Virus record (IMG/VR): IMGVR_UViG_2778261380_000011
Coordinates: 1-19,475 of that record
Direction: 5' to 3' (one strand)
Length of the DNA: 19,475 bases
DNA from: a virus
Lineage: Duplodnaviria; Heunggongvirae; Uroviricota; Caudoviricetes
Of the stretch, positions 2,380 through 19,475 are shown one piece after another. The notes beneath the pieces are model-generated. The model made no database searches. It was given only the letters and a program-made list of their open reading frames with translations, and had not been told where the DNA came from. The first letter of the stretch is position 1. Every line of letters begins with the position of its first letter. Made by a program: the position numbers and the translations under genes.

Positions 2380-2387
2380 GGTGAGAT

Positions 2388-2727: not shown

Positions 2728-2748
2728 GCATAAACAACAGAGGCTAAC

Positions 2749-3353: not shown

Positions 3354-3418
3354 TATGCATACCAATAACGCTTCACTTGAGGCGTTTTCGTTATGCAATC
3401 AAACAGAAGGAGCATCCT

Positions 3419-3982: not shown

Positions 3983-4881
3983 GCAATATCGTTGAATTCG
4001 TTAAACAGCAAGAGCAGTTATTCTGCGGAGCATTGACTGAACAGACGGTGACATGGGCTAAGGAAAGCCAGTTTGCAATTCAGTATTTCCAGAAAAATGA
4101 TTACCTGGCTAAAACGGCACTGGCAAATCCAACCAGCGCACAGAACGCCATCATCAATGTTGCGGCGATCGGCATCACCTTAAACCCGGCCAGCAAACTT
4201 GCTTATCTAGTTCCGCGCGACGGCATGGTTTGCCTTGATATCAGCTATATGGGATTACTTCACCTTGCACAGTCGACAGGATCAATTAAGTGGGGGCAAT
4301 GCAAACTGGTGTACTCAAACGACACCTATGAATCAAACGGCCTTGATTCAGCACCAACCCACAAATACAACGCATTTGGTGAGCGAGGCTCTATTGTTGG
4401 TGGTTATTGTACGGTTAAAACAGCAGATGGTGACTACCTCACTGAAGAAATGAGTCTGGCAGAAATTAAAGCAGTGGAAGCAACGAGCAAGGCAAAGAAT
4501 GGACCGTGGAAAACATTCTGGGAAGAGATGGCACGTAAAACAATAGTTAAACGCGCCAGCAAATACTGGCCTAAAGCCCAGCGACTGGATAATGCCATTC
4601 ACCTGCTTAACGAAGATGAAGGTATGCATCAGGAACCAGTTATGCCGCACAAATCAGAGGAAGATATCCGCGAAGATGAACGGAAACGCCAGCAGGAAAT
4701 AATGGAAAAAGCACAACTTCTTTGTGATGAAATGGCTCAGGCAGAAAACATGGATGATTTGAAGCGATATTTTGCAGAAGCATATCGCCTGACATCTGGA
4801 ATGAAATTGCAGCAGAACGTACAAGCCATTTACATAGAATGCAAAGCGAAACTGGAGGTTGCCAGTGAGCAAACTATATGA
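3979..4881 (+). CDS. recT: RecT-family single-strand annealing recombinase
   Basis: Motif NGPWKTFWEEMARKTIVKRASKYWP resembles RecT NGPWVTHWEEMAKKTAIRRLFKYLP (from memory); 300 aa; coupled to flanking genes. Confidence 0.88.
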   Translation: MSNIVEFVKQQEQLFCGALTEQTVTWAKESQFAIQYFQKNDYLAKTALANPTSAQNAIINVAAIGITLNPASKLAYLVPRDGMVCLDISYMGLLHLAQSTGSIKWGQCKLVYSNDTYESNGLDSAPTHKYNAFGERGSIVGGYCTVKTADGDYLTEEMSLAEIKAVEATSKAKNGPWKTFWEEMARKTIVKRASKYWPKAQRLDNAIHLLNEDEGMHQEPVMPHKSEEDIREDERKRQQEIMEKAQLLCDEMAQAENMDDLKRYFAEAYRLTSGMKLQQNVQAIYIECKAKLEVASEQTI

Positions 4882-5347
4882 AATAGCCAATGAATACGCA
4901 AAATTGATGGATTCAGATTTAGAGCCAGAGATGATTGCTGACACAATAGAAGGCATGGAAGGAGAATTTACCGATAAAATAGAGCAACTTCTTGCCATTA
5001 TTAAAAATGAATCTGGTTATGCTGAACGCCTCAAGGACGAGGCAAAATCACTGAATGAACGAGCCGCAGTAATTCAAAATAAGATTGACAGCATTATGGC
5101 GTATATAGCGTCATCGCTTGAAATGGTTGGCAAGAAAAAGATTCGAGCGGGTATTCACCAGGTAACAATCCGCAAACCGTCAGAAACTGTAGAAATCATC
5201 GACTCAAGCGCCCTTCCTCCTGAATACGTTGAGTTTGAAACGACAATTAAAGCCGACAAACTGGCAATCAAACACCAACTAAAAGCAGGAATAAATATCC
5301 CCGGCGCTCAACTCAAAGTTGGGAAACCTTCACTTCTTATCAAATAA
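4865..5347 (+). CDS. hypothetical coiled-coil protein (about 160 aa) in RecT-partner position, possibly Siphovirus Gp157-like
   Basis: GTG 4865 preceded by GGAGG (4854-4858), overlaps recT stop; family assignment is tentative. Confidence 0.55.
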   Translation: MSKLYEIANEYAKLMDSDLEPEMIADTIEGMEGEFTDKIEQLLAIIKNESGYAERLKDEAKSLNERAAVIQNKIDSIMAYIASSLEMVGKKKIRAGIHQVTIRKPSETVEIIDSSALPPEYVEFETTIKADKLAIKHQLKAGINIPGAQLKVGKPSLLIK

Positions 5348-5358
5348 CGGTATCGCCT

Positions 5359-5673
5359 ATGAAAAAGACTCCATGGGAGAAATGGGAAGTCGATTTCTTA
5401 CGCGAAGTAGCGGCGACAATGCCAGTTGAAGTTATCGCAGAAAAACTGGAAAGGACTGAAAAAGCAGTAATGGCGAAAGCAACAAGGATTGGCGCTGACA
5501 TTGTTAGCCGACTTCGTGGAAGACGCTGGACAAGAGCCGAAGTATCACTTTTCGGTAAGTTCTCCGCAGAAGAAATAGCAATTGCAACCTGCCGCTCAAT
5601 TTATTCAGTAAGAGCTATGCGATACAAGCTAAAAAAACTCGATGAAGAAAGAGCAGGCATACGAATAAATTAA
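5359..5673 (+). CDS. hypothetical protein (104 aa)
   Basis: ORF in operon context; weak SD. Confidence 0.55.
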
Positions 5674-5689
5674 CAAAGAGGAATTTACC

Positions 5690-5854
5690 ATGAGAGGACT
5701 TGCATACAATCCCGGCATTCTTCCGGCAGAAATGATTATTCGCCAACGCGTAAAGCCAATGCCATCGAGAGAGGAATTGCTTAAGAGAAATTCTTTTCCA
5801 TCAGTGAATCAAAACAAATATCTGAATGCGATGTGGAGGAGTGGGAAGAAATGA
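5690..5854 (+). CDS. hypothetical small protein (54 aa)
   Basis: ATG 5690 preceded by AAGAGGA; stop overlaps next start (ATGA at 5851-5854); not in ORF track. Confidence 0.45.
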
Positions 5855-6360
5855 AACAAATGTCACTAATTGAGATGGATGGATTTCTGAAAGGTAAATG
5901 CATCCCACGAGATTTAAAGGTTAACGAAACAAACGCTGAATATCTTGTCCGTAAGTTCGGTGAACTTGAATCAAAACTGGAAACGGCGTTGCGGGAGTGT
6001 CGTTCTGCTGGAATCACGATTGATAACCTTGAGGCCAAGTGCGCGGCGCTGGCAGCGGAGAGTGTGGGGATGAAGAAGTTCTGCAAAGACGCTGCATTCG
6101 ATGCCGATTACGAAGCAGAGCTAGGTATGGAGCGTGGTGGATTCAGTGATGCGCTTAACGAAATCAAAACCCCAGCCACCGATGCTTTCCTGTCTGAAGT
6201 GCGGGCGCAGGGCGTGGAGATGCTGGCAAAAAATCATCAGAGTATCGTCAATGCACTTAAGGGAGATTCTTTATTTTCTGATGGTGAATACCTGCATGCA
6301 GCTATTGTTTCCGCAGCTGTATATTTCGCTGCAGAGCTTCGCAAAGGAGGCAACCAGTGA
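5851..6360 (+). CDS. hypothetical protein (169 aa)
   Basis: ATG 5851 with GGAGG upstream; ORF-track start 5833 is a GTG extension. Confidence 0.65.
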
Positions 6361-6611
6361 GTAATTCAGCACGACTACAGCTTGGTTTTTCACCGCTATC
6401 AAAAACTATCATGCTGGCAAAAATGCGCTATGTTGAAGGTGGACGTATGCGCGTTGGCAATGATCCAGGTCGTGATGTTACCAATGAGGCTGCTCAATTG
6501 GTGTGGCGACTGGTCATGGCTGAAGGTGGTGAGATCGCGTGGGAGCTGGATGATGGTTCTCGCATGGTGTTGAAGGCAGAAAAGCAGGAGGCAACCAGTG
6601 AGCAAGATTGA
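6357..6611 (+). CDS. hypothetical protein (84 aa) bounded by identical 17-mers
   Basis: GTG 6357 overlapping preceding stop, preceded by AGGAGG; ends within second copy of aggaggcaaccagtgag. Confidence 0.45.
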   Translation: MSNSARLQLGFSPLSKTIMLAKMRYVEGGRMRVGNDPGRDVTNEAAQLVWRLVMAEGGEIAWELDDGSRMVLKAEKQEATSEQD

Positions 6612-7584
6612 TTATCAGGCACTGCGTGCTAAGGCAGAAAAAGCAACGTGTGGCGAGTGGTCGCTCGAATATGGAGAGAGCCGATTTGATGGTGATGATG
6701 CGCTAATTCATCGTGAAGTTGCTGGATATATTCCCATTTGCAGAATTGAAGGAGCGCATCCAGAAAGCGGTTTCGATGAAGATTTCCAAATGGAACAGCA
6801 GGCCAATGCTGAATTCATCGCCGCAGCCAATCCGGCTACCGTACTGGCGCTGCTGGATGAACGGGAAAGAAACCAGCAATACATCAAACGCCGTGACCAG
6901 GAGAACGAGGAAATTGCGCTTACGGTAGGGAAGCTGCTAATCGAAAACGGCCGGCTTGTTGCCGATACGCTACGCCACTTAGCTGATAACGAAATCGACT
7001 CTGATTATTTTGCTATCACCTCAACTAATGAGAACGGTACTGAAATTGATCATGAGATGTCTATTACCGATTACGCACTGCAAGCTGCCGGAACTGTAGA
7101 CGAATTGGTTGCGGCGCTGGAAGCCGCAAAATCAAAACTCAACGAGCAGCGTGAATATTACGAGGGAGTAATCGCGGATGGGAGTAAGCGTATTGCTGAA
7201 CTGGAGAAAAGCGAAGAGCAACTCATCAATGAGCGTGACCATGCTGAGTCTGCTTTAGCTGATATGTACTTTGCAGCAACCGGTAACAGGCCGGAGTGGA
7301 GCAACTGGTTCGGCTTTTCAGATGCTGTCGATGCCGTGGTTGACAGAATAGCTGATTTAGAAGCCAAACAGCCATCGCCGGTAGTGCCGGATAATGCATC
7401 AGAGTCGCTTGCTTATGCTTACAAAGAGCTTACGCCTGAGATTATGCGCGGTCATATCGCTGTATTCGAGCGATATGGAATAGCCCCAAACGATAGCATT
7501 ACCACAATTCAGGCACTGCGAATCGCGCTGGATGGTATAGAGCGGAGCGACGCCATGCTTCAGGGAGGTAATAATGACCAATAA
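6598..7584 (+). CDS. Ead/Ea22-like family protein
   Basis: GTG 6598 after AGGAGG; N-terminus MSKIDYQALRAKAEKATCGEW resembles Ea22-like prophage proteins (from memory). Confidence 0.7.
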   Translation: MSKIDYQALRAKAEKATCGEWSLEYGESRFDGDDALIHREVAGYIPICRIEGAHPESGFDEDFQMEQQANAEFIAAANPATVLALLDERERNQQYIKRRDQENEEIALTVGKLLIENGRLVADTLRHLADNEIDSDYFAITSTNENGTEIDHEMSITDYALQAAGTVDELVAALEAAKSKLNEQREYYEGVIADGSKRIAELEKSEEQLINERDHAESALADMYFAATGNRPEWSNWFGFSDAVDAVVDRIADLEAKQPSPVVPDNASESLAYAYKELTPEIMRGHIAVFERYGIAPNDSITTIQALRIALDGIERSDAMLQGGNNDQ

Positions 7585-8188
7585 CAACCTAACAGACGAG
7601 CGCCTGAGCGTACTTATCCGTGTGGCTAGGGATTCTCTTGAATTGTATGAAATGGAGTTGCCTGTCATTGATGATGTAATGCTAGCGCTGGCCGAACTTC
7701 AGCAACGCCGCGCCGCCATGCTTCAGGGAGGCCAACCTGTAAACCAAACTTACAACTTGCCAGAATTAATCGAAGGCATGGAGGTTTCCATTGATGTAAG
7801 CACTTGTGATGCTGATTTAGGTAATCGCTATTTCGGCACCGTCACCGAGGCGTCAGAACTTGATACTGCCAAGAATGGTTACATCCTCCTGGTTCAGGAC
7901 GCAGAGCCAAACTTCGATGTAAATGGCAACTATCCGGTAACTCCGGATGGTTGGATAAGCTGTAGTGAGCGAATGCCAGAAATGGGAGAGCGACAATGCT
8001 ATGTGTTAGCAGCTGACTTTAAAAACAACTACCCACCAAACATCCCCAACACTCAGGTCGGCGTATATGGCGACTGGTTTAATGATGGCAATCCCACTTG
8101 GGATGACGGTGATGGCGAAGACCTGTATCTCAAAGAGGTAACCCACTGGATGCCTCTACCAGAACCGCCTCGATTAAAGGAGCTATAA
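7574..8188 (+). CDS. DUF551 domain protein with ea22-like N-terminal remnant
   Basis: C-terminal motif VTHWMPLPEPP typical of DUF551; N-terminal about 50 aa resemble an Ea22 C-terminal tail and end at a repeated 17-mer. Confidence 0.75.
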   Translation: MTNNNLTDERLSVLIRVARDSLELYEMELPVIDDVMLALAELQQRRAAMLQGGQPVNQTYNLPELIEGMEVSIDVSTCDADLGNRYFGTVTEASELDTAKNGYILLVQDAEPNFDVNGNYPVTPDGWISCSERMPEMGERQCYVLAADFKNNYPPNIPNTQVGVYGDWFNDGNPTWDDGDGEDLYLKEVTHWMPLPEPPRLKEL

Positions 8189-8302
8189 TAGTGAACTATT
8201 ATATCTATTTGTATTAAAAGAGTTTTTATAAAATAAATCTTCCAAAGCATGTAAAAACACTGTTAATCTTAACGTGTGTGAAACGTGAAGAGAGGTGTTG
8301 AA

Positions 8303-8584
8303 ATGAGCATTCATGGTTTGTGTGAAGATCAAGAGCAATGGGCTATGCAGACCCTTATGGGATCAGGAGTTCTTGCAAGGTGCAGAATCCATAACGATGT
8401 AATTTTAGACAGCGGAAATGATGCTTCTTCTGCTTATAAATTAGGAACTTACCTATATCAAAAAGATAATAGCTGCAACTTATTCAATACTCTTACTGAA
8501 GCCCGCGACGCAATAAAGGATGCATATGAATCGTATTGTGGGATTGATGATTGCCCACAATGCTCAAAATACATTGACGATTAA
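8303..8584 (+). CDS. hypothetical Cys-containing protein (93 aa)
   Basis: ATG 8303 with GAGGTG SD; AT-rich upstream region; followed by tandem hairpins 8605-8660. Confidence 0.55.
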   Translation: MSIHGLCEDQEQWAMQTLMGSGVLARCRIHNDVILDSGNDASSAYKLGTYLYQKDNSCNLFNTLTEARDAIKDAYESYCGIDDCPQCSKYIDD

Positions 8585-8672
8585 TAATATGAACAAGTAA
8601 CTATCCTCGCACTCGCGGGGATTTCTTTTATCTGAACTCGCTACGGCGGGTTTTGTTTTATGGAGATGATAA

Positions 8673-8840
8673 ATGCACTTCCGAGTCACAGGTGAATGGA
8701 ATGGAGAGCCATTCAACAGAGTTATCGAAGCAGAAAACATCAATGACTGCTATGACCACTGGATGCTATGGGCGCAGATAGCACATGCAGACGTAACCAA
8801 TATTCGAATTGAAGAACTGAAAGAACACCAAGCCGCCTGA
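8673..8840 (+). CDS. hypothetical small protein (55 aa)
   Basis: ATG 8673 preceded by GGAG; not in ORF track; followed by terminator. Confidence 0.45.
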   Translation: MHFRVTGEWNGEPFNRVIEAENINDCYDHWMLWAQIAHADVTNIRIEELKEHQAA

Positions 8841-8853
8841 TGGCGGTTTTTTA
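8832..8853 (+). terminator. intrinsic terminator
   Basis: ccgcc (8833-8837) / ggcgg (8842-8846) stem followed by tttttta. Confidence 0.6.
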
Positions 8854-8897
8854 TTACCTGATTTGCAGGTTCGATTCCCTATTCGGAGATAGCACTC

Positions 8898-9098
8898 ATG
8901 CAACACGAACTACAGCCTGATTCACTGGTTGATTTGAAATTCATCATGGCCGATACTGGCTTCGGTAAAACCTTCATCTATGACCGGATTAAGTCCGGCG
9001 ACCTGCCAAAAGCCAAAGTTATCCACGGGCGAGCAAGATGGTTATATCGTGACCATTGTGAATTCAAAAATAAGCTCTTAAGCCGCGCCAATGGGTAA
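8898..9098 (+). CDS. alpA: AlpA-family transcriptional regulator / excisionase-like protein
   Basis: 66 aa; LKFIMADTGFGKTFIYDRIKSGDLPKAKVIHGRARWLYRD fits AlpA/Xis winged-helix pattern (from memory); 250 bp upstream of integrase on the same strand. Confidence 0.8.
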   Translation: MQHELQPDSLVDLKFIMADTGFGKTFIYDRIKSGDLPKAKVIHGRARWLYRDHCEFKNKLLSRANG

Positions 9099-9346
9099 AA
9101 TAGCGGGTAAAATATTTCTCACATCTAAAAAATACCATTCCAATCAATCCCCTGCCGCTTCAAGTAGATGTCTGCAGGGGACACCATGAACACTTCTCAC
9201 TAAGTTCAATTAATTCCATAACTCACTGTTTTAACTGATATCATCTCCTTATACTCGTCCAGCAAAGTACCATTATTTCTAATGGAATCTATACATCTTT
9301 GCGTATAACATTGTGTATAACTGAGTTCGATCTTTTTTCTATACAC

Positions 9347-10522
9347 ATGCTGCTATCTGACATCCAAATAAAAAGAGCAAAACCGAAGGACAAACCCTAT
9401 ACGCTTAACGATGGTATGGGGCTATCACTCCTGATCGACACAGCGGGCAGTAAAGGCTGGCGTTTTCGCTATCGCTTTGCAGGTAAGCCTAAGATGATTT
9501 CCTTTGGCGTATATGGCGATGTGTCGTTGGCACAGGCACGTACCAAACGTGATGAAGCGCGTTCGATGTTAGCCAACGGGATAAACCCAAGTGAAGCCAG
9601 AAAAGCAGATAAGATTGCTTTGCAGTTCGCGCATGAGAACAGCTTTGAGTCTGTGGCCAGAGAATGGCACTCATCGAAAAAAGCCACCTGGTCAGAGGGT
9701 TATGCAAAAGAGGTTCTCAATTGTATGGAAAAGGATATTTTTCCTTTTATCGGCCAGCGCCCAATTGAGCAGATTGAACCATTAGAACTGCTAACCGTCC
9801 TGCAAAAAATAGAGAAAAGAGGTGCGCTAGAGCAAACCAGTAAGATCCGCCGCCGCTGTGGTGAAGTGCTTCGTTATGCTGTTGCCACTGGTAGAGCAAA
9901 GTATAATTTTGCACCCGATTTAGCTATCGCACTCAACAAACCTAAAACCCAACACTTCCCGTTCCTGACTGAAAGCGAGTTGCCCGAGTTCGTTAATGCT
10001 CTGGATAACTATCAGGGCAGTTTAGTTACCAAATACGCCACGCAGCTGTTGATGCTAACAGGCGTGCGAACAATTGAACTACGTGCAGCGGAATGGGCTG
10101 AGTTTGATTTAGATAATGCCTTATGGGAGATCCCCAAAGAACGGATGAAGAAACGCCGCCCCCATCTGGTTCCGTTATCAACTCAGGCGATCAATATCCT
10201 GAAAAAGCTGCAAGAAATAACAGGGAATTACAGCCTCGTTTTCCCTGGCCGGAATGACGTCAGTAAACCAATGAGCGAAGCCAGCATCAACAAAGTGATA
10301 AAACTACTGGGTTATCACGGTCGGTTAACGGGTCACGGTTTCAGGCATACCATGAGCACCATCTTGCATGAGCATGGGTTTGAAAGTGCCTGGATTGAAA
10401 TGCAGCTTGCGCATGTTGATAAGAACTCTATTCGAGGTACTTACAATCATGCGCAATATATTAAAGATCGACAAGTAATGATGGAATGGTACGCTAGCTT
10501 ATTAAATACGACCTGCTATTAA
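9347..10522 (+). CDS. int: tyrosine recombinase, P4-type integrase
   Basis: N-terminus MLLSDIQIKRAKPKDKPYTLNDGMGLSLLIDTAGSKGWRFRYRF typical of P4-family arm-binding domain; C-terminal HGFRHT (HxxR) and catalytic Tyr region RGTYNHAQY; ORF-track start 9299 is an extension. Confidence 0.92.
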   Translation: MLLSDIQIKRAKPKDKPYTLNDGMGLSLLIDTAGSKGWRFRYRFAGKPKMISFGVYGDVSLAQARTKRDEARSMLANGINPSEARKADKIALQFAHENSFESVAREWHSSKKATWSEGYAKEVLNCMEKDIFPFIGQRPIEQIEPLELLTVLQKIEKRGALEQTSKIRRRCGEVLRYAVATGRAKYNFAPDLAIALNKPKTQHFPFLTESELPEFVNALDNYQGSLVTKYATQLLMLTGVRTIELRAAEWAEFDLDNALWEIPKERMKKRRPHLVPLSTQAINILKKLQEITGNYSLVFPGRNDVSKPMSEASINKVIKLLGYHGRLTGHGFRHTMSTILHEHGFESAWIEMQLAHVDKNSIRGTYNHAQYIKDRQVMMEWYASLLNTTCY

Positions 10523-11452
10523 ATCCAGCATGAAACAAATATGGTGAGTAATTTGATACTGTTTGTTTTTTGGCAACCCAGGGAAATGCCTTACAGTTGG
10601 TTGACTATTGTAATAATAATAGTTAAGACCAATGTTGCTGCCAAACTGGGTTGGATGTTGGGGAACAAGATTTGTAATTTGATCTGAAACATCTAAAAAT
10701 TTTGCAGTAACATTTGAACTTCCTCGTTGCGTGTTGCTTGATACAAAATGACGAATCCAAACTGTATTCGCTTGTAAATTCTTGAACACCAAATGTGCGG
10801 CAACAGCAGAAGGTTGACCACCTCCAAGATCTAGTACCTGGCCAGTAATTGTATAATCGCCAAATCCTAAGTAATTTTGTCCCACGAATTGATGTGCGTG
10901 CGTGAAAAGTTCCGGCCCATTATAATCAGCATTTTTTGCTAACTTTCTAAAGTTATCGCTAATAATAATTAACTTCGACAAAGGAAGAAGAGCGCACTGA
11001 TTAGGAAGCATTTTATTATTTAAAACAACATGATAACTAATCAATTGATTTGTCGCCAACAACTGAATATCAGAGTTGGATAATGATGGATTATCATATA
11101 GAAGTGCAACTCGTCTATTTAAGTTAGCATTCAACCAATTATTAATATCATTAATCGTTGTATTGGGCTGAATAAGATATCCAGAGATGATATTATTTTT
11201 ATTTGTTAATACACTTGATAAATTTTGATTTAAAGTTAAGACGTTATTGTGTGAAGAAAAATCTTCCTGATAAGGATTAAGGATAACAATTATGTCAGAA
11301 TTCCAAACATTTAAACATGTTAATAAATTTCTCGTATTGACGTTAATTGGTTCTAAAATTGGTAGCAGACCATTTAGGCTAACTCCCTTCGCAACGAGGT
11401 CCCTAAGGCATAATAACTCTGTACTTCTCGCATACAAATATGGGCTATACAT
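10502..11452 (-). CDS. hypothetical protein (316 aa), second gene of AT-rich cargo operon
   Basis: ATG 11452 preceded by AGGAG; 21-nt gap after upstream gene; no recognisable domain; 3' end overlaps integrase 3' end by 21 nt (convergent). Confidence 0.8.
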   Translation of the reverse strand: MYSPYLYARSTELLCLRDLVAKGVSLNGLLPILEPINVNTRNLLTCLNVWNSDIIVILNPYQEDFSSHNNVLTLNQNLSSVLTNKNNIISGYLIQPNTTINDINNWLNANLNRRVALLYDNPSLSNSDIQLLATNQLISYHVVLNNKMLPNQCALLPLSKLIIISDNFRKLAKNADYNGPELFTHAHQFVGQNYLGFGDYTITGQVLDLGGGQPSAVAAHLVFKNLQANTVWIRHFVSSNTQRGSSNVTAKFLDVSDQITNLVPQHPTQFGSNIGLNYYYYNSQPTVRHFPGLPKNKQYQITHHICFMLDLIAGRI

Positions 11453-11473
11453 AACTTACAACTCCTGAGGATA

Positions 11474-12355
11474 TCAACAAATTTTAATTTTTACATCCAT
11501 CAAATTCATGATGAATTCTTTTTGCTTTCTTGATAATGGTGTTGCATAACCTAAAACACGTAAACATGCTGGAAGAGAATAAATATAATCCAAAAAAACT
11601 TTATCGTTACATCTTTTTTTCATAGCAGAGATAAAGTATTTATTTGCTATGTTTAATGGCATCTGCATGAATATCTCTTTACAATATTCATAAACCAATC
11701 CGTTAGGCATATTTATTTTAGTTGAAGTGTAATCTTCTATTATAGCTAAGAACTCTTCCTTTCTAAGAACTGAAAACAAGCTGTCACTTTTAATATAATC
11801 AATATTTGAATCTGCCTCCTTAATGACACTCAATTGATCTTTTTTATTCAAAACCATAACTCCCACTCTGGGGAGATTTAAAGCACAATATTTACTTGCA
11901 TACTCTGGATGTGTAACTATATACACTTTATCAAAAACATCCAAATAATCAGGGGCTTGAGTAATCAACCTTTTTGGTGAATCATACTCTGTCTTAATCT
12001 CGTAAGCTGTAGACGTACCATTAAACACCGCAACATCCACTATAGAGTTTTTAATTGGTAACTCTATGGACGACGAACTTGTTTTTGGGCTGTGCTTACC
12101 GAATATTATTTTATTGACAAGTGCTGTCTTATAAACATATTCATTTCTATAATTCAGACGCAAAAAATCATATAATGATGTAAATAAATCCCTTAGTGAA
12201 ATCTCATGTTCATTATTATCATTGTTTGAAAACAGTGTTTCATAGCAGTAAGAATCAAAACTCCCAAATAAATCCGAAATATCCTTACCTTTTGCTAAGG
12301 ATGAAAAAATGGGGCGACGGAAAAATTTAGCATATTCCTTTTTATTATGACTCAT
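11474..12355 (-). CDS. hypothetical protein (293 aa) with PD-(D/E)xK nuclease-like motif, first gene of AT-rich cargo operon
   Basis: Motif SIVD(107)VAVF-x9-YE(119)IK(121) (nt 11993-12037); strongly AT-rich coding sequence. Confidence 0.8.
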   Translation of the reverse strand: MSHNKKEYAKFFRRPIFSSLAKGKDISDLFGSFDSYCYETLFSNNDNNEHEISLRDLFTSLYDFLRLNYRNEYVYKTALVNKIIFGKHSPKTSSSSIELPIKNSIVDVAVFNGTSTAYEIKTEYDSPKRLITQAPDYLDVFDKVYIVTHPEYASKYCALNLPRVGVMVLNKKDQLSVIKEADSNIDYIKSDSLFSVLRKEEFLAIIEDYTSTKINMPNGLVYEYCKEIFMQMPLNIANKYFISAMKKRCNDKVFLDYIYSLPACLRVLGYATPLSRKQKEFIMNLMDVKIKIC

Positions 12356-13034
12356 TACTCATACTCTATAAACATCATGCAATTTGATAAGTTATGACGA
12401 ATTCTCACCATCCAGTTACTACCTGTACATACTAATCAAAAAAAACGAGTACGCAAGATACGAAAGTACTTTTCTTGTTCACCAGTTAGCTTACCTTGAT
12501 CCTCACCAGCGACTGGAAGATAGGTAGCAGTATATGTGGAAACCTTCCCCTAGCTAGGTCTACAAACGTAGTTTGGGCATTTAGGCTCCACGATTCACGG
12601 TTTGACACGGCCTGATATCTGCACATTCGTTTTGATATGCAGCAATCGTGAAAAAGGAAAATATACGCTCGACAGACCAAAACGGCACTACACCGCACCC
12701 GCCTGCGGTTTTCATATCACTAAAAATTTTCAGCCTGGATTTTTTACAAACGATACCGCCAGTCCGTGCCAGTCCTCGAGATGTACTGCGATACAGGAAC
12801 TGAAAAGAATGAAAAGAAATTCATTTTTTTTCAGTTTTACTGTCCGTCGAATCTATGGCCTGAATACGCAACTCTATGATATTAAATGGATAATTAATTT
12901 TAGGTGTGTGATTTTATGAAGGTTTGTGAAACATGAAGAAGATAACCAGTTGAAAAATAATAATTTTATGACCGTATAAACTGAAATCCTGTGTTCAGGT
13001 TCCGGGAACAGATCGGCCATTCCCGACGCATACT

Positions 13035-13307
13035 TTACCCATTCTTTTGCGCAGCCAGCAGCAACTTTAAAGCCTTTTCCCGTTCCTCGGGTGGAATTGC
13101 ATCAATCAGCTCTTTAACCCTTCCCTGCCCGTTCAGCGCGCTTGGACTAACGGAATGGGAGAAAGCAACATTCATCACAAACGAGTGACCGCACTCCACA
13201 TTAGAGCAATAGCAGTACACATCGTACAGTTGTGGGTGTTTCCTGTTTGTTTTACCTATCCGTGCTACTGCCTGACATGTGGGGCAGTACATTCTCATCA
13301 TCTTCAT
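13035..13307 (-). CDS. Ogr/Delta-family zinc-finger transcriptional activator
   Basis: MYCPTCQ...YCYCSNVECGH Cys4 pattern as in P2 Ogr / P4 Delta; exact start among several N-terminal Met codons uncertain. Confidence 0.75.
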   Translation of the reverse strand: MKMMRMYCPTCQAVARIGKTNRKHPQLYDVYCYCSNVECGHSFVMNVAFSHSVSPSALNGQGRVKELIDAIPPEEREKALKLLLAAQKNG

Positions 13308-13373
13308 CGTTCTGTGCCCTATACTGTTGCCCGCCAGAAGAAGGGATTTGGATCCCTACCTCTTGTTCTGAAC

Positions 13374-13563
13374 GTGTAACACTGGTAACACGTGTAACGC
13401 TATTGATTTAAAAGGATTTAATCTGTTACCAGTTAGCAAAATCAAGAGGTAACGCGTGGTAACACACCATTTTTTGTTACCTCTGTTACCAGTCAGTATT
13501 TTTGACTGGTAACACTGAAGAACCGCATCAGTAACGGGTGTTACCTCTGTTACCAGTGTTACC
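13374..13563. repeat. iteron array: about 13 copies of TGTTACC / GGTAACA heptamer in both orientations, mostly phased at 9 bp; putative replication origin
   Basis: Copies at 13374-13399 (three tandem 9-mers), 13424-13430, 13448-13464, 13475-13490, 13508-13514, 13531-13563; located immediately downstream of primase gene. Confidence 0.75.
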
Positions 13564-13589
13564 TCATAAAAATAAGACTCACGCGATAA

Positions 13590-16277
13590 TCACTCAGGTT
13601 CAGCGCTTCCCAGTACCTGTGTATTGAACTGGTACACACGTTTAAGCCCTATTTCTGGCAGGCGAATGCTGTTTTGCGTCCGGCCATCTTCACCGGGTTT
13701 CAGCCAGCCCGCGTCCACACACAACCTGGCCACCTTACGCGAGTCAAATCCCTTACAGATCTCCTTCCAGCCTGACGGGAGAACGTAGAACGTCACAACC
13801 GGCTCTGTCACGTTGTCTCCTTTATCGACTTTTCTGAATCCCATCATTGAAACAGGCCGGTTCCTGTCGTCATTCCAGTCAGCAAACCGACTGAACTGAT
13901 TACGCGTCATGAAGTCCCGAACCTGTTCAAGTGCCGCTTTATCTTCCTGATTAGCTGTATGGCCCCGGTCAGCCATCCATGCAGCCAGACAGCTTTGAGC
14001 GGCACGAAAGGCCTCTCCCTCCGGCCATCCTGTGATGCCCGCTTTTGTGGCCAGCTCCCCGGCCATCGCAACCAGAGCAAAACGGGTAACAGCCCGGCCA
14101 ACCTGATTCCCGGCATTTTCCGGCGTCAGCCTTCGGGTATACTCTTTCAATAAGGCTTTCGCCTGACTGGTCAGTTCCGGCAGATCAGCGGTCAGGCAAT
14201 ACAGCCAGTCGCGGAATGGTGCACCATGATAATGCGCTACGTGCTGCTCAAGATGCTCAGCCAGGGTTTTCCCGCTACTGAAGCCATGAAGTTCTTCAAA
14301 CACGCCATACTTGCCCGAATCGCTTGGGATCTGGATCATTCTGACCTCAACCCCGGCATACGTACGTTCCCCGGCGCTTGCCGCATGCTCTACCAGTGAC
14401 AGTTCCCCGGTAGACAGAAACAACAGATTCCAGCGGTTGGTTTCCCTTACCGAACCATCTGTTCTGGCTCTGGCTTTGCCCTGCCCGTTAGCCAGCATAT
14501 AAGCGATATTTCCCGCCTCCCTGCCGTCAACCTCCCGGATTTCATCCAGCATCAGCGTGGCATCATTGCGGCGGCTCGCCGTTCCTTCTAAGGCATTCCC
14601 CGTCGCCCGCCACGTATGCCAGAAATCTGTTCCACCACATACTGATGCAGCCACTTTCATCGTCGTGGTTTTACCGTCTGTGGATTCCCCTTTGAGGTGA
14701 TAACCTCCACCGCCGATACCAACCAGTTTCAGAAGGGGGGCAGCAAATGCCAGACTCACCGCAAAGGCAAGACGGGCATTCTTTATGCAATAACGGCCTA
14801 TATTTTCACGCCAGCCCTCTGATGTGCCGCTGACACGAAAATCACGCCCCTGCACACTCGATGTTTGTAAGATGACTGACTGGGCTTCGCGCCCTATCAC
14901 TTCATCCTGGAGAACGTAAACCCCGCCGTGCCAGCCAGTTTTATTCACACAGGTTACTTTTCTGTCCGGTTTACACAGCGAGATATATTCCATCAGGAAT
15001 GCTCTGGCCATGCCGTTAATGTTGATGTAAGAAAGCCCGTTAACCAGCAGAACGCGGCGCAGTTCTTCCCCGCTACCGCCCAGCATCTCCATCGGCATTG
15101 CCCATTTACGGCTGTTTCCGTTGGTATCTTCCCATTCCAGCAAACGCCCGTAATTACTTCCATCAGCATCACTGGTGATTGCCGTCACCCGCAACGGACT
15201 GCAAATTTTGATATTACGTATCTCTGTATCACCATCAGACTTATTAACCAGCTTGTCGTACCACAAATATTCTTTTGTCAGCCGGAACCCTTCTGGTAAA
15301 CGGGTCTGCCCTTTGCCATGCAGCGTCATTTCTTCACGAAAGGCATCTCTCGCCCGTTCTTTCCCCACTTCCTGCCGATAATCATCCCAGTCAGCCTTAT
15401 GGCGTACCGGAGGGAGCGTTACCCAGCCATCCACCGCTTTGGCGGCTTTCTCTGCCTGAATACGCCCGGTGTTTTCTTTGCCGTCAGCCAGATCATTATC
15501 TCCGGCCAGAATGATCCGGGTTTCCGGCCAGCGTTTTCGGATCTGCTCCGTCACCTTCAGTAAATTGGTGGCAGCGACAGCCGCCACGATCCATCCTTCA
15601 GTCAGCAGACTGACGGTAAGCGCCGTGGCAAAACCCTCAGTGATAATCACCTGTTCAGGTGTTTCAGCGGGTATATCGGTCAGGGCAATGAATGCGCCAG
15701 ACAGCTGGCTACCGGGCAGCAGACTTTTATCCCCGTCAGGATTGATAAGCTGGCCACCAGTAATATTCCCGGAAATATCCGTCAAAGGCAGCAGTAATGA
15801 ACCGGTGGAAAATGTTATTCCGGCCAGATTCAAAGGCTGTGACAGCAAGGGAAGTGAATACCCGTGTAAGCTCTTATTTGTCAGATAGACCGGCTCACCA
15901 TTGCAGGACTGCTGTCTGAGTCTGGTATATCGCTCCGCGCCCGCTTCTTTTCCTGCGGCCTTTTTCCTGGCTGGCAATGCGGGCTTCTCCTGTATTTCTG
16001 GTAATGCAAGCGCCTCAGATACCATCCCGGCGACTTCTTTTATCTTTCTTCCTGTCACCAGACGAACCAGATCAAGACCATCGCCATGACCGCACTGATT
16101 ACAAAACCACGTCCCTCGCCCCGCTTTATCGTCCAGTCGAAAACGATCTTTTCCACCACAGGCAGGGCAAGCCCCATGATGTCCTGCGGACGGTACTTTA
16201 ATACCTAATGCTGACAGGATATAAGGCCAGCGCCCAATTGCAGCTCCGGAAATCGTGGATACAGACGGTGTTTTCAC
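13590..16277 (-). CDS. P4 alpha-type primase-helicase (895 aa)
   Basis: N-terminal zinc-binding primase motif CPACGG...WFCNQCGHGDG; Walker A GESTDGKTT; GTG start 16277 preceded by AGGAGG and overlapping upstream stop (GTGA). Confidence 0.9.
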   Translation of the reverse strand: MKTPSVSTISGAAIGRWPYILSALGIKVPSAGHHGACPACGGKDRFRLDDKAGRGTWFCNQCGHGDGLDLVRLVTGRKIKEVAGMVSEALALPEIQEKPALPARKKAAGKEAGAERYTRLRQQSCNGEPVYLTNKSLHGYSLPLLSQPLNLAGITFSTGSLLLPLTDISGNITGGQLINPDGDKSLLPGSQLSGAFIALTDIPAETPEQVIITEGFATALTVSLLTEGWIVAAVAATNLLKVTEQIRKRWPETRIILAGDNDLADGKENTGRIQAEKAAKAVDGWVTLPPVRHKADWDDYRQEVGKERARDAFREEMTLHGKGQTRLPEGFRLTKEYLWYDKLVNKSDGDTEIRNIKICSPLRVTAITSDADGSNYGRLLEWEDTNGNSRKWAMPMEMLGGSGEELRRVLLVNGLSYININGMARAFLMEYISLCKPDRKVTCVNKTGWHGGVYVLQDEVIGREAQSVILQTSSVQGRDFRVSGTSEGWRENIGRYCIKNARLAFAVSLAFAAPLLKLVGIGGGGYHLKGESTDGKTTTMKVAASVCGGTDFWHTWRATGNALEGTASRRNDATLMLDEIREVDGREAGNIAYMLANGQGKARARTDGSVRETNRWNLLFLSTGELSLVEHAASAGERTYAGVEVRMIQIPSDSGKYGVFEELHGFSSGKTLAEHLEQHVAHYHGAPFRDWLYCLTADLPELTSQAKALLKEYTRRLTPENAGNQVGRAVTRFALVAMAGELATKAGITGWPEGEAFRAAQSCLAAWMADRGHTANQEDKAALEQVRDFMTRNQFSRFADWNDDRNRPVSMMGFRKVDKGDNVTEPVVTFYVLPSGWKEICKGFDSRKVARLCVDAGWLKPGEDGRTQNSIRLPEIGLKRVYQFNTQVLGSAEPE

Positions 16278-16684
16278 AGCAGCACCTCCTGACCTTCCGG
16301 CTTCACAAATTCAAAACCTTCGGGTAGTTCGCCATCAGGTGCTCCGAAAATAATATCCCGGTAAACCTCACGCATCTCTGTGACACCAAAAACTGACAGG
16401 CGAATATTTTCTGACATAAAGCCTGGTTTAAGCATTTTTTCCAGTTTCTCTGCGGCCAGTATGCAACCAGCATCAGCCCCAAACTCATTCACCCACGGCA
16501 TTTCAATATGGTAAATAATATTACTCACCACTTTTTCGTGGGAGAGTTCTATTCGTTCGCCATCTTCAATATAAACAGGTTCATTATGAACACGCACCAT
16601 TAAGGAAATGAATGCATCAGCAATGTAGTAGCGTAAGACTGCTGTTCGTAAAGCATGCGCCTTTAAATTTTGATTATTATTCAT
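16274..16684 (-). CDS. hypothetical protein (136 aa), coupled upstream of primase
   Basis: ATG 16684 preceded by AGGGAG; stop overlaps primase start. Confidence 0.7.
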   Translation of the reverse strand: MNNNQNLKAHALRTAVLRYYIADAFISLMVRVHNEPVYIEDGERIELSHEKVVSNIIYHIEMPWVNEFGADAGCILAAEKLEKMLKPGFMSENIRLSVFGVTEMREVYRDIIFGAPDGELPEGFEFVKPEGQEVLL

Positions 16685-16913
16685 CGCGCATCACTCCCTT
16701 AATTGTGCTGGTTTCCTTAACAACGCCATCCAGTTGTTCGGCAATACAGGCCACTAAAGCCGCAGCGCCTTCCGCTGAAACAGTTCTCGCTCCATTCACT
16801 GTGGGCACGGACAAGACCTCTGCAAGAAACTCACTGGCCAGTGCCGCCCGTAACAGACGACTCTCCCCCTGTTCACTCAATATGCAGCCTTGCTTAAAAT
16901 TCATGGATTTCAT
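16677..16913 (-). CDS. hypothetical protein (78 aa)
   Basis: ATG 16913 preceded by GGAGGTG; overlaps neighbours at both ends. Confidence 0.6.
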   Translation of the reverse strand: MKSMNFKQGCILSEQGESRLLRAALASEFLAEVLSVPTVNGARTVSAEGAAALVACIAEQLDGVVKETSTIKGVMRDE

Positions 16914-17113
16914 GCAACCACCTCCCCGGCTCTTTTCACAGGGATACGGGCAGCAAAGCTCAGGATAAATTCAGTGGCAAGTTTAAGGCGTGCAGCATGC
17001 TCGCATTCTGCGATTACACGCACAGGGCGTGGACGGGCATCACGGTCTGTACGGCGGACAGCCAGAAAGACAAAGGTAAATTCAGGGTGAGATAAAGCAG
17101 GGACTGTAGCCAT
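16910..17113 (-). CDS. hypothetical protein (67 aa), first gene of replication operon
   Basis: ATG 17113 preceded by AAGGAGG (rc of 17121-17127); ORF-track 196-aa version is an unsupported upstream extension across the leader. Confidence 0.6.
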   Translation of the reverse strand: MATVPALSHPEFTFVFLAVRRTDRDARPRPVRVIAECEHAARLKLATEFILSFAARIPVKRAGEVVA

Positions 17114-17123
17114 AATGGCAACC

Positions 17124-17390
17124 TCCTTCAGATAGCGGGTAACGCTACCACCGGAGTTCCTACGCTCATGGGTGGTAGCCCAGACGGGGGTAGGAATACC
17201 GGCTCTGAAGGATACCGGCCAGCCCGAAAGCTGCCCCGCCTGGACTACCATAATTCTGATGATGTGGCGTAAAAAATAAAAAAATACAATCAGCCACCAC
17301 ACCATAAATTTTAGGTGAGTCAAAGCTGCGACACAAAAAAACACGCCTAGCGCGTGTAGTATCGCCTTCAGATAACACGGGTTCCTACGC
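17124..17390 (-). promoter_or_regulatory. structured leader with duplicated element (gttcctacgc at 17156-17165 and 17381-17390, each after ccttcagata) and a complementary gtaggaa motif (17190-17196) between them; P4 CI-RNA-like immunity architecture
   Basis: Direct repeat plus internal complement; inverted repeat gctaccacc/ggtggtagc (17135-17179) encloses the downstream copy just before the RBS. Confidence 0.45.
17334..17357 (-). terminator. intrinsic terminator/attenuator within the leader
   Basis: On minus strand: stem acacgc/gcgtgt (17341-17357) followed by U7 (rc of 17334-17340). Confidence 0.6.
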
Positions 17391-17419
17391 CCGGCTGCCG
17401 ATTTTGCGGCAACCTTTAA

Positions 17420-17449
17420 ACTATATCCCGCGCATTCCTGGTGAGGCAA
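17420..17449 (-). promoter_or_regulatory. sigma70-like promoter for the leader/replication operon (-35 TTGCCT rc of 17444-17449, 18-nt spacer, -10 TATAGT rc of 17420-17425)
   Basis: Hexamers read on minus strand upstream of the repeated leader element. Confidence 0.5.
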
Positions 17450-17552
17450 GAAATTTATAACCGAAAACTGATCATTGCCTGGATTAATTAACGCTGGCAT
17501 GCTTAAGCCTCTGCTTAAAAATAGTTCTTCATTTTTCCTGATGCTGTAAACG

Positions 17553-17580
17553 AGACCCGCCTCTGAGCGGGTCTTTCTGT
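17553..17580. terminator. GC-rich hairpin immediately after capsid-like gene
   Basis: agacccgc (17553-17560) / gcgggtct (17567-17574); T-run weak on minus strand, so function as terminator is uncertain. Confidence 0.35.
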
Positions 17581-17587
17581 CGCTAAG

Positions 17588-18592
17588 TCAATCCGCAAAC
17601 GTCAGGGTGCACTCATCAACAGCCGCGTACAGTTCAGGTTCACCGAGTGCATAACCTTCATTGCGCAGGTAGGAATGCACGTATTCACTGCTTTCATCAT
17701 CAAACTCAGCACGAAACCAGCGTGTTATCGCCTGAGTGTAAATATGCAGATTATCCAGCGTCGTTACTGCCAGACGCTTACCCGGCATAAACGGGGGAAT
17801 AAACGCAAAGCGGCCAGCAACAGAACTTGTAGCCATCTGTGCCGCATTCACATCAGACGGGCGGTCTGCGGCATTAAATAACTTCAGGCGTTGATGTGCT
17901 GCCAGCTCTGCCCCAACCAGTACAACCAGACGAGGATCTTCACGAAACTGCTCAGCAATAAGCTCTGTAATCAGATGGTTGGCCAGAGCATCAATATTTT
18001 TCCAGGTGCCAGTCTCTCCCAGAGTGACAGGCTCAGAGATGATTTGCTTTCCGTTCCCGTAGGCTTTCGCCAGTGCATGCCAGCCAATATTGACATCCTC
18101 GCCTTTTTTATTGATTTCCGGGTTTGTAGTATTTGCAATCGACACACCGTTGAAACCGACCCGCAGCATGTCCAGCGCATATGCCTGGGCAAAAAAGCTC
18201 TCAACCGTTTTCTCAAACTCATCCGGCACGCCGGTATGGTAAATATGAGACATATCGGAATAGCTGATCCGGGCGCAGGTATCCGTCTCTGTCAGAAAGA
18301 ACTCCGTACCATTGATTGCCATTTTTTTGTGGAAACGGCCACCATCCACACGTCCGGTATACAGTTCACTGGCACCAATATTGACGGCATTACCTGACAC
18401 GGCGTTAACATCACGTAGGGTAATATTTTTAATAAGCCACCCGGATTCCAGAATTGAGGTACGCAGTATATTTTCAGTAGGTTCGCTTAATGCAAAGCGT
18501 CTGTTTGATTCTTCCTGATAGTTAGTGCCAGTGACGAATTTATTATGATAACGACGTGCTGCGTCCGGCCTTTCAGTTTTGAAGGCATACAT
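17588..18592 (-). CDS. P2-family major capsid protein (gpN-like) homolog
   Basis: Segments LDMLRVGFNGVS, DALANHLITELIAEQFREDPRLVVLVGAELAA and C-terminal half align with P2 gpN as I remember it; ATG 18592 with AAGGTG SD. Confidence 0.7.
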   Translation of the reverse strand: MYAFKTERPDAARRYHNKFVTGTNYQEESNRRFALSEPTENILRTSILESGWLIKNITLRDVNAVSGNAVNIGASELYTGRVDGGRFHKKMAINGTEFFLTETDTCARISYSDMSHIYHTGVPDEFEKTVESFFAQAYALDMLRVGFNGVSIANTTNPEINKKGEDVNIGWHALAKAYGNGKQIISEPVTLGETGTWKNIDALANHLITELIAEQFREDPRLVVLVGAELAAHQRLKLFNAADRPSDVNAAQMATSSVAGRFAFIPPFMPGKRLAVTTLDNLHIYTQAITRWFRAEFDDESSEYVHSYLRNEGYALGEPELYAAVDECTLTFAD

Positions 18593-18614
18593 AGTTTTTC
18601 ACCTTTTTAAGTAT

Positions 18615-19475
18615 TTAAGAAAAGATTTTATTTTTGTACTCAGTAACCAGATTGTATTTCATTACATGCTCAACATAATCCCGGTCACTTACGACTGAAC
18701 GTAATACATAATTATCTGCTCGATAGTACTCCCTGTAAGCCATAGCTCTTGCCATTCCACCGTTATTTAATACATAACGATCAGTTGGAACGCTACAACG
18801 ACTAATAATTTCACTCACGGAATCAGATAAAGACTTGAGTGCATCAGTAATAAATTTAATATCACGGACAACGTCACTGTCATTAAATACAGAAATAAAA
18901 TCAGCAGGGATCTGGCCGGATTGAGGAAATATATTCAGTAAACGCTTATCGATTCCCTTCCCAATGTAGTTTCCTTCATCGGCCAGTACTCCCGGCAAAA
19001 GCTTGATCGTGCTCAATCGACTATGTTGTTCATTCAACCGGGAAACAGCCAGATGGTAATACCGTTCAGCATCCGCTCGTTCAGCATGCCCCATTTTATT
19101 CGTTTTGGCTTCAGCAATGCTACTGACGCCGTTTTTTGAGAATGTGCTTTTCCATGCAACTTCCGCATTTGTCACTTCACGCTGCCGGAAAGATAACTCT
19201 TCCTCTTCCTGACGACACAACTGGGCATAACGGCTCAGGAGCAGGTTGATCTCATTCGCCACAGTTTCCGTATCAGGTACTGTTAACCCCGTAAGTGAAT
19301 ACAGCTTTTCACCTTTAGCTCGCAGCTTATTCAGTGAATATATTTCAATAATACGCACAATACAGGCCGTGTCGCTATGAGTCTCTTTAAATGATCTTAC
19401 TTTGTAACTATCTAACACCGACACATGTTCGTTCTTAATTGATGCCAATTTCTTCTTAAAAACATTGTCAACCAT
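18615..19475 (-). CDS. hypothetical protein (286 aa), AT-rich
   Basis: ORF begins with ATG exactly at window end (rc of 19473-19475) and ends 22 nt before capsid gene; no family recognised. Confidence 0.65.
   Translation of the reverse strand: MVDNVFKKKLASIKNEHVSVLDSYKVRSFKETHSDTACIVRIIEIYSLNKLRAKGEKLYSLTGLTVPDTETVANEINLLLSRYAQLCRQEEEELSFRQREVTNAEVAWKSTFSKNGVSSIAEAKTNKMGHAERADAERYYHLAVSRLNEQHSRLSTIKLLPGVLADEGNYIGKGIDKRLLNIFPQSGQIPADFISVFNDSDVVRDIKFITDALKSLSDSVSEIISRCSVPTDRYVLNNGGMARAMAYREYYRADNYVLRSVVSDRDYVEHVMKYNLVTEYKNKIFS

Follow-up and report, generated by a model that had tools for sequence, protein, structure and literature searches.

A P2-family major capsid gene is a stable part of a P4-like satellite at the argW site of Escherichia coli

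Capsid piracy is classically exemplified by bacteriophage P4, whose Sid and Psu proteins act on the helper capsid protein gpN, a mechanism commonly regarded as representative of P4-like elements. A stretch of caudoviricete DNA of 19,475 nucleotides (IMG/VR record IMGVR_UViG_2778261380_000011, positions 1 to 19,475; referred to below, at its full length, as the window) contains an apparent P2-type capsid gene at positions 17588-18592 within a P4-like gene module. The question raised by this locus is whether a satellite with a P4-type backbone carries a capsid gene of its own, as a first-pass annotation of the sequence had proposed, or whether the gene is left over from a P2-like prophage, which the same annotation offered as an alternative. 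The results described here show that the gene encodes a P2-family major capsid protein (MCP) and that it is a stable part of a P4-like satellite of ∼11 kb at argW, not a prophage remnant. The two genes of immediate concern are as follows.

17588..18592, minus strand: MCP gene of the P2 family (HK97 fold), ATG start, 334 amino acids, intact
18615..19475, minus strand: orf286, 286 amino acids, all-alpha product, lying upstream of the capsid gene with a 22-nt gap; its start codon is formed by the last three bases of the window

The MCP matched Pfam family PF05125 (Phage_cap_P2) almost from end to end (profile positions 16-326 of 327), with an E value of 9.5e-67 and a score of 225.8 bits against a cutoff of 27, and it matched PHROG 70, “major head protein,” with an E value of 1.8e-86. 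The identical protein is recorded in RefSeq as WP_000270796.1, a “P2 family phage major capsid protein.” Sequence matches among solved P2-family capsid proteins were obtained with the phiRSA1 MCP (7oz4; 3.6e-21) and with gpN (7jw1; 2.7e-16). An AlphaFold model of moderate confidence (pLDDT 71.8) was closest in fold to gpN in the P4 procapsid (7jw1; E = 3.6e-21, TM 0.64); 7jw1 and 7oz4 headed the fold matches and were followed by encapsulins and other HK97-fold MCPs. The gene is that of a P2-family capsid protein, with a match far beyond chance, and the profile search that the first-pass annotation had called for bears out its assignment. The further implication of a P2-type relationship holds for the capsid family but not for the phage lineage. 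Identity with P2 gpN itself is only 25%, and the nearest phage relatives in the phage collection belong to the ESSI-2-like peduoviruses, at ∼48-50% identity; the MCP phylogeny, the Ogr/Delta protein and a putative cos site described below suggest that these phages, and not P2, are probably the relevant helper lineage.

The distribution of the gene was assessed by a scan of one genome per species, which gave 29 loci, together with a tblastn panel of proteins from the window, P2 and P4 that included the head genes of P2 and ESSI-2; distant proteins were added from precomputed Pfam contexts. All 17 loci examined in which the MCP was at least 53% identical to that of the window had a satellite layout, in the order AlpA/Vis, orf28x, MCP, (GPO_N), immunity, small ORFs, primase, Ogr/Delta, hotspot and int, without Q, P, M or L, and none of the 17 was contiguous with portal and terminase genes. 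The 11 loci examined in which the MCP was at most 52% identical all had ogr-Q-P-O-N-M-L, and the identity to ESSI-2-like MCPs at the screened loci ranged from 45 to 52%. Outside E. coli, satellite loci were found in Citrobacter, Enterobacter, Franconibacter, Siccibacter, Kosakonia, Phytobacter, Intestinirhabdus, Erwinia, Buttiauxella, Proteus, Yersinia, Providencia and Pectobacterium. In a neighbor-joining tree, all 17 satellite MCPs formed one clade, sister to the MCPs of ESSI-2-like phages and with P2 gpN as the outgroup. This single clade, in a phylogeny of the kind that the first-pass annotation had suggested for the protein and helper gpN, suggests a single origin of the satellite MCPs. 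Given dN/dS values of 0.09-0.13 for the MCP and of 0.15-0.18 for orf286 (where substitutions are unsaturated), both genes are maintained by selection. The recurrence of the layout across Enterobacterales and the purifying selection on the MCP are in agreement with the earlier proposal that the capsid gene belongs to the satellite.

The whole element can be read in E. coli SA186, where it occupies ∼11.05 kb at the tRNA-Arg gene argW in the order tRNA-Arg, integrase, sce7725, sce7726, Ogr/Delta, DUF927 primase, two small ORFs, an “Icd-like” ORF, capsid, orf286, a 75-residue helix-turn-helix (HTH) protein of the Vis/AlpA type, attR and dsdC. The left boundary lies within the window.

9168..9186, plus strand: left att core, a copy of the 3′ end of tRNA-Arg/argW, ATGTCTGCAGGGGACACCA; two mismatches relative to the tRNA-Arg core, with 0 occurrences expected by chance

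This core marks the left junction between the satellite and a lambdoid prophage integrated in tandem. The same tRNA-Arg core forms attR in the locus designated L001 (∼23302-23321), between the HTH gene and dsdC. Beyond the end of the window, past orf286, only the 75-residue Vis/AlpA-like gene and the att core (the tRNA-Arg 3′ end) are present before the host gene dsdC is reached. In complete genomes the island therefore ends ∼745 bp past the window with no further head genes, a result that refutes the prophage-remnant alternative by the inspection beyond the window that the first-pass annotation had proposed. As the first-pass annotation had stated for portal, terminase, gpM and gpL, the tblastn panel detected no homologue of these proteins in the window; neither the window nor the complete island, as read in complete genomes, contained portal, terminase, gpO, gpM, gpL, Sid or Psu. 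Among 5426 complete E. coli genomes, 440 carried the satellite (identical DNA, at least 80% coverage), and ST131 strains are among those that best match the entire window.

The remaining satellite genes in the window, together with the elements surrounding the capsid gene, are listed below.

9299..10522, plus strand: tyrosine integrase (Pfam Arm-DNA-bind_3, Phage_int_M and Phage_integrase; RefSeq start at 9347, 391 amino acids)
10502-11452, minus strand: cargo gene of the sce7725 family (RefSeq product name)
11474-12355, minus strand: cargo gene of the sce7726 family, P4 cII-like (RefSeq name; PADLOC “cll” model, E = 1.2e-18)
13035..13307, minus strand: Ogr/Delta-type zinc-finger late-gene activator, 90 amino acids, single domain (RefSeq product name)
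13361..13577, no strand assigned: cluster of iterons similar to P4 crr/ori, just 3′ of the primase gene
13590..16277, minus strand: alpha-like primase/helicase, 895 amino acids (Pfam Zn_Ribbon_Prim, Toprim_3 and DUF927; PHROG 1139, E = 4.5e-185)
16274..16913, minus strand: two small conserved ORFs of 136 and 78 amino acids (PHROG 5991 and PHROG 38507)
16910-17500, minus strand: ORF of 196 amino acids, “host cell division inhibitor Icd-like” (Pfam Phage_ASH), overlapping the C4/CI and isrK-like RNAs on the same strand
17168-17255, minus strand: CI/C4 antisense RNA (Rfam RF01695, 81.1 bits; gathering score 45)
17336-17413, minus strand: isrK-like RNA (Rfam RF01394, 68.9 bits; gathering score 50)
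17374-17426, minus strand: c4 target sites, c4-a1b1 (Rfam RF03163, 43.8 bits)
17553..17574, minus strand: GC-rich 8-bp hairpin, 14 nt 3′ of the capsid stop codon, AGACCCGC-tcagag-GCGGGTCT followed by CGTTTAC

The backbone is of the P4 type. The element is ∼11 kb in length (11.6 kb for P4), occupies a tRNA site, and encodes an integrase 40% identical to P4 Int, an HTH protein (Vis/AlpA) 46% identical to P4 Vis, immunity of the C4/CI-RNA type, an alpha-type primase with iterons downstream, an Ogr/Delta protein and a defense or cargo hotspot between a putative cos site and int. The N-terminal 41% of the primase is 38% identical to P4 alpha; its C-terminal part is of the DUF927 type, which is a point of difference from P4. 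The single Ogr domain of the Delta protein gives a length of 90 amino acids in comparison with the 166 of P4 Delta; homologues in related satellites match Pfam Ogr_Delta. The 136-residue ORF holds the position of P4 orf106, and its Pectobacterium counterpart belongs to Pfam DUF5375, as does P4 ORF106; both small ORFs are syntenic in all close relatives. The hotspot contains a P4 cII-like gene, P4 cII being likewise labeled “sce7726 family” by RefSeq. No PADLOC model was matched by the sce7725 protein and no gop homologue was found in the hotspot (10502-12355); the same position in relatives is occupied by Kiwa, retron Ec48, DndB or HATPase genes.

TGTTACC/GGTAACA repeats in both orientations are densely clustered in the interval that separates delta from the 3′ end of the primase gene. 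Nine of the 13 copies of TGTTACC in the window lie within 13384-13563, where 1.7 copies would be expected in the window as a whole. P4 crr has the same position relative to alpha, and the cluster at 13361-13577 is probably an alpha-binding crr/ori. The type I repeat of P4 is TGTTCACC, which differs from the TGTTACC repeat of the satellite.

The capsid gene is co-directional with the immunity leader and lies just upstream of it and of the primase operon, as first described. The gap between the capsid stop codon and the annotated Icd/Ash ORF is 88 nt, and includes the hairpin at 17553-17574. A terminator scan made no call at this hairpin, its T run being short; it may nevertheless mark the end of the capsid transcription unit, and might partially insulate that unit from the immunity and replication operon. 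Given that the Icd-like ORF overlaps the C4/CI and isrK-like RNAs on the same strand, at least its N-terminal two-thirds probably represents RNA-coding leader, not protein, in the manner of the ORF once assigned to a P4 “cI protein.”

Seven core components of P4-like satellites have been defined, namely Int, Psu, Delta, Sid, AlpA, Epsilon and Alpha (Moura de Sousa & Rocha). Four are present and clustered here (Int, AlpA, Delta/Ogr and Alpha). Sid and Psu were not detected by tblastn in the window or in any satellite locus, and Epsilon was likewise not found by tblastn. With three of the seven components missing, the element was not filed as a canonical P4-like satellite. The place of Sid and Psu is taken by a two-gene module, orf286 and the MCP gene, which is situated between vis and the immunity leader and to which a GPO_N gene is added in some relatives. 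A sub-group of the satellites (L006, L007, L009, L011, L017 and L018) has a different integrase, ∼60% identical, which is encoded upstream of orf286 and not at the far end; tblastn did not detect the window-type Vis in these six loci. The integration module has therefore been swapped in this sub-group and the capsid module kept.

The partner of the capsid gene, orf286, is flanked by the AlpA and MCP genes in every locus examined, and the two most distant homologues that could be placed also lie between AlpA and a P2-family MCP. The AlphaFold model of its product (pLDDT 87.8) consists of long helices. Close homologues are all Enterobacterales proteins of ∼288 amino acids. A profile search of 1.84 billion representative proteins returned only 53 clusters, nearly all complete members of which have ∼276-308 amino acids, and gave no link to any larger family. 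No match to the protein was obtained in Pfam (with 37 family members included), PADLOC or the Protein Data Bank (PDB); a profile search of the PDB gave coiled-coil noise only, and Foldseek comparison with the PDB and BFVD gave nothing below E = 0.06. The possibility that orf286 is a diverged gpO, Sid or Psu was rejected, since BLASTP and hhalign comparisons (with two family profiles) against P2 gpO, ESSI-2 gpO, Sid and Psu were all negative. The product is an elongated helical protein, its gene adjoins that of the MCP, and the two are co-inherited in all loci examined. Because scaffolding proteins typically consist of long helices and have their gene just ahead of that of the MCP, orf286 is a candidate scaffolding or size-determining protein by position, co-inheritance and helical shape, not by homology. 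The MCP is most diverged from the phage MCPs over its first ∼40 residues (18-27% identity, in comparison with 54-71% over the C-terminal 110), and a diverged N terminus would fit an altered scaffold partner.

The satellites that are more distant, from Yersinia, Providencia, Pectobacterium, Proteus and metagenomes, have a third gene, which directly follows that of the MCP. It encodes ∼170 amino acids and its product contains only the Pfam domain Phage_GPO_N. Four examples are given here by locus.

L037, 9011-9532: GPO_N-only gene directly 3′ of the MCP gene
L039, 9017-9550: GPO_N-only gene directly 3′ of the MCP gene
L041, 3563-4072: GPO_N-only gene directly 3′ of the MCP gene
L044, 2404-2925: GPO_N-only gene directly 3′ of the MCP gene

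In the alignment of these proteins the columns for D19, H48 and S107 (P2 gpO numbering), the catalytic residues of gpO, are invariant, and the C-terminal scaffolding half of gpO is missing. The clade from E. coli, Salmonella and Enterobacter has lost the GPO_N gene. In comparison with the head modules of P2 (gpN/gpO) and the ESSI-2-like phages, the satellite module thus has an MCP of the same Pfam family and fold and a GPO_N protein that aligns with the N-terminal domain of gpO. It differs in its gene order (orf28x-N-O′ and not O-N-M-L) and in the absence of the gpO scaffolding half, portal and terminase.

The identity of a likely helper was approached through a non-coding block in the window.

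12658..12835, minus strand: putative cos (packaging) region, non-coding, between the hotspot genes and delta; includes the 19-mer GGCGGGTGCGGTGTAGTGC at 12685-12703

This block shows homology to the record of Cronobacter phage ESSI-2 across its joined ends (75% over 148 nt and 89% over 46 nt). The ESSI-2 record has a 15-nt terminal direct repeat, GCGGGTGCGGTGTAG, and comparison with its joined ends showed that the window holds GCAGGCGGGTGCGGTGTAGTGCCGTTTT exactly. The 19-mer is present in all complete satellite loci, with a single substitution in each of L012 and L014, although its flanks are only ∼72% identical. It was found without mismatch in at least 119 IMG/VR stretches; among the 80 of these that were read, 56 were ESSI-2-like phages, in whose contigs the 19-mer adjoins a gpD-like tail gene, and seven were classed as satellites by script. 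The record for phage ESSI2_ev015 breaks inside the 19-mer, and since the integrase of this phage is more than 2 kb away, the ends of the record are not att sites. An att function for the shared block was also rejected on the grounds that the block lies inside the satellite, far from the att cores, and that two phage records break there. The 19-mer is as long as the cohesive end of P2 and P4, and the two agree at 11 of 19 positions; the P2/P4 cos sequence itself is absent from the window, even with three mismatches allowed. The location of the putative cos next to the cargo hotspot is the arrangement found in P4. The 19-mer is therefore a probable, not a mapped, cos site of the satellite, which the helper terminase would recognize. 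As a separate observation, the ESSI2_ev015 record (NC_049395.1, Escherichia phage; L042) opens, in positions 1-48, with an apparent Nextera transposase adaptor, TCGTCGGCAGCGTCAGATGTGTATAAGAGACAG, after which comes the second half of the putative cos 19-mer; this suggests adaptor contamination at a physical DNA end.

Three independent lines point to the same phages. The satellite MCPs are sister to the MCPs of ESSI-2-like phages, the Ogr/Delta protein of the satellite has 43-54% identity to the product of the ogr gene beside the portal gene of ESSI-2-like prophages, and a block of ∼180 nt with the 19-mer is shared. On this basis, the helper lineage is probably that of the ESSI-2-like peduoviruses (Seongnamvirus/Quadragintavirus), not P2. 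The ∼11.05 kb of the satellite and the 28.8-30.9 kb of these phages give a size ratio of ∼0.36-0.38, in comparison with 0.35 for P4 and P2 (11.6/33.6 kb). Three short “phage” records, OR850877, OR850886 and OR845435, came into question as possible packaged satellites; the two that were read, OR850877 and OR850886, were rejected, being unannotated low-coverage contigs, and the MCP of OR850877 groups with phage MCPs.

The explanation favored here, with moderate confidence, is that the satellite exploits an ESSI-2-like helper by means of its own orf286-MCP module. Upon infection by the helper, or its induction, the satellite would replicate and express a vis-orf286-MCP unit. The orf286 protein would act as a dedicated scaffold or size determinant, and the satellite MCP would assemble around the helper portal into a small shell suited to ∼11 kb, by analogy with the T=4 capsid of P4 and the T=7 capsid of P2; alternatively, within the same proposal, it could co-assemble with the helper MCP. 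In the distant clades, maturation would rely on the satellite's own GPO_N protease; in the E. coli clade, cleavage would be left to helper gpO or would not occur. The helper terminase would then cut and package one satellite genome from cos to cos at the shared 19-mer, and the head-completion and tail proteins of the helper would finish the particle. In this scheme the orf286-MCP module would perform the job of Sid and Psu in P4.

Several observations weigh against this scheme. Formation of a capsid, its small size and the identity of the helper are all deduced from sequence, and the assignment of the 19-mer as cos derives from the ends of phage records, not from mapped DNA ends. For orf286, neither homology nor fold likeness to gpO, Sid, Psu or any scaffold was detected, and its proposed role is drawn from position, co-inheritance and helicity. 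Loss of GPO_N in the E. coli clade could signal that the module has been simplified or repurposed. ESSI-2-like prophages were present in only 29 of the 5426 complete E. coli genomes, in comparison with 440 for the satellite, and were thus too rare for a test of satellite-helper co-occurrence. No convincing late promoter of the Ogr/Delta type (a TGT-N12-ACA dyad) was found upstream of vis-orf286-MCP; a single dyad of this kind, in the elements from E. coli and Citrobacter, lies 72 nt before vis, but it shows no conservation in other clades and the spacing does not fit. Finally, a conserved capsid gene need not build a transducing particle, since the capsid genes of Gram-negative phage-inducible chromosomal islands (PICIs) have been reported as dispensable for transfer (PMC10111431).

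Three rival explanations were weighed. One of them, considered unlikely, holds that the satellite MCP co-assembles with the helper MCP and changes capsid size, or poisons helper capsids, with orf286 as an accessory and interference as the main output. Mixed assembly is conceivable given that the satellite MCP shares its fold, and 45-52% of its residues, with the putative helper MCPs. The 16 alignment positions fixed differently in satellite and phage MCPs, and the lack of a protease gene in the E. coli clade, also speak for this rival. A precedent is provided by Ccm of SaPIbov5, which has been proposed to co-assemble with the helper MCP and so redirect capsid size, and satellites commonly interfere with their helpers, as noted in the introduction of Rousset et al. 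However, the distant clades combine an MCP with a scaffold-like gene and with a protease domain in which D19, H48 and S107 are invariant, more than a poison subunit needs, and the diverged N terminus of the MCP and its strictly co-inherited partner suggest a self-contained assembly pair.

Less probable again is the view that the capsid gene is a conserved passenger, dispensable for transfer, and that the satellite is packaged, for example as multimers, into unmodified helper capsids via cos. The DNA of P4 sid mutants goes as multimers into heads of P2 size, so that a cos site alone can suffice. Moreover, an MCP gene that is not needed for helper-assisted transfer is carried by 21 of 29 reference Gram-negative PICIs (PMC10111431). 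This view does not sit easily with the strong purifying selection on both MCP and orf286, nor with the finding that, from E. coli to Proteus and Yersinia, the module has been kept together although the neighboring genes change; some selected function, in transfer or otherwise, is implied by these two findings. Derivation from a decayed P2-like prophage beside a P4-like element has in its favor that P2-family capsid genes normally sit in prophage head clusters. It is nevertheless very improbable, and was rejected, given that the att cores enclose satellite genes only, that no fragments of Q, P, O, M or L are present, that the same gene order recurs in many genera, that the gene is intact with a dN/dS of ∼0.1, and that the satellite MCPs form a clade of their own.

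Comparison with described satellites bears on the further expectation, raised at the outset, that a satellite with its own capsid gene would be unusual. As a general statement this does not hold, because satellites with capsid genes are known, among them the capsid-forming PICIs (cfPICIs) and the PICIs cited above (PMC10111431); the part that stands is that no description was found of a P2-family capsid on a P4-type backbone. The satellite is like the cfPICIs in encoding its own HK97-fold capsid protein and in depending on a helper for other parts of the virion. The cfPICIs encode MCP, portal, protease, head-tail connectors, TerS and sometimes TerL, so that the helper supplies mainly tails (NAR 2023). 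Here, only an MCP and a scaffold-like gene are found, with a protease domain in distant clades, on a P4-type backbone and with an MCP of the P2 family; without portal, connectors or TerS, the element is not a cfPICI. PICIs of the EcCICFT073 type resemble it in being small integrative satellites with int, alpA, a primase and one helper-type capsid gene. Their capsid protein, however, belongs to the lambda E family (in one example), their helpers are lambdoid and the gene is reportedly not needed for transfer (PMC10111431), whereas the satellite described here has a P2-family MCP strictly paired with orf286, a P4 backbone and a putative cos of the peduovirus type. Given that MCP family, helper type and backbone all differ, it is not a PICI of that kind. 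A further parallel is SaPIbov5, whose Ccm is a satellite homologue of the helper HK97-fold MCP and a morphogenetic tool tested experimentally; its host, helper family and backbone differ.

Within the literature that could be searched, which is incomplete, neither P4-like satellites with a P2-family capsid gene nor satellites that exploit ESSI-2-like phages were found described, and the published surveys of P4-like elements that were examined mention no capsid gene. In the survey by Rousset et al., P4-like elements were located by their psu gene. Surveys of this design would miss the capsid-carrying family, which lacks psu. Within these limits a P4-type backbone with its own P2-family capsid gene is previously undescribed, satellites with capsid genes as such being already known. 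A broader proposition, advanced tentatively and a little short of evenly balanced, is that the element is the founding member of an undescribed satellite family, found in ∼8% of complete E. coli genomes, that replaces only the shell layer (the MCP, the fold-orphan orf286 and, ancestrally, a gpO-derived protease) and relies on an ESSI-2-like helper for portal, terminase, head completion and tail. This would be a third route of parasitism, distinct both from the remodeling of helper capsids from outside by P4 Sid and from the complete head kit of the cfPICIs. Such a family would be an evolutionary intermediate between P4-like and capsid-forming satellites.

The same backbone for replication, immunity and integration can, on the evidence of this locus, carry a different morphogenetic solution, consisting of a captured and long-retained capsid gene and a partner of unknown fold. 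If the proposal is correct, the satellite would offer a tractable E. coli system for determining how capsid size is set when only a capsid protein and a scaffold are at work. It would also represent a family overlooked by psu- or sid-based surveys, with a cos-side hotspot that accommodates defense systems (Kiwa, retron Ec48 and DndB) in relatives and, in this element, a P4 cII-like gene pair. The proposal further predicts that ESSI-2-like phages are a specific and previously unrecognized helper lineage.

The remainder of the window, from position 1 to ∼9100, is the early-left region of a P22-like or lambdoid prophage integrated in tandem at argW. Its genes include those for a LexA-type repressor (970-1671), an N-like antiterminator, RecT (3979-4881), ead/Ea22-like proteins and torI (8898-9098). 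The protein encoded at 4859-5347 is Mu Gam-like according to PHROG and belongs to the siphovirus Gp157 family according to RefSeq. The satellite integrase gene follows torI across the att core at 9168-9186, and adjoins tRNA-Arg directly in strains without the prophage. At the opposite end of the satellite, ∼20 tandem CAGCC pentamers were observed between attR and vis in L001 (23095-23190, ∼520-615 bp past the end of the window) and also in the Citrobacter relative L005; the length of this run could vary and affect the vis promoter region.

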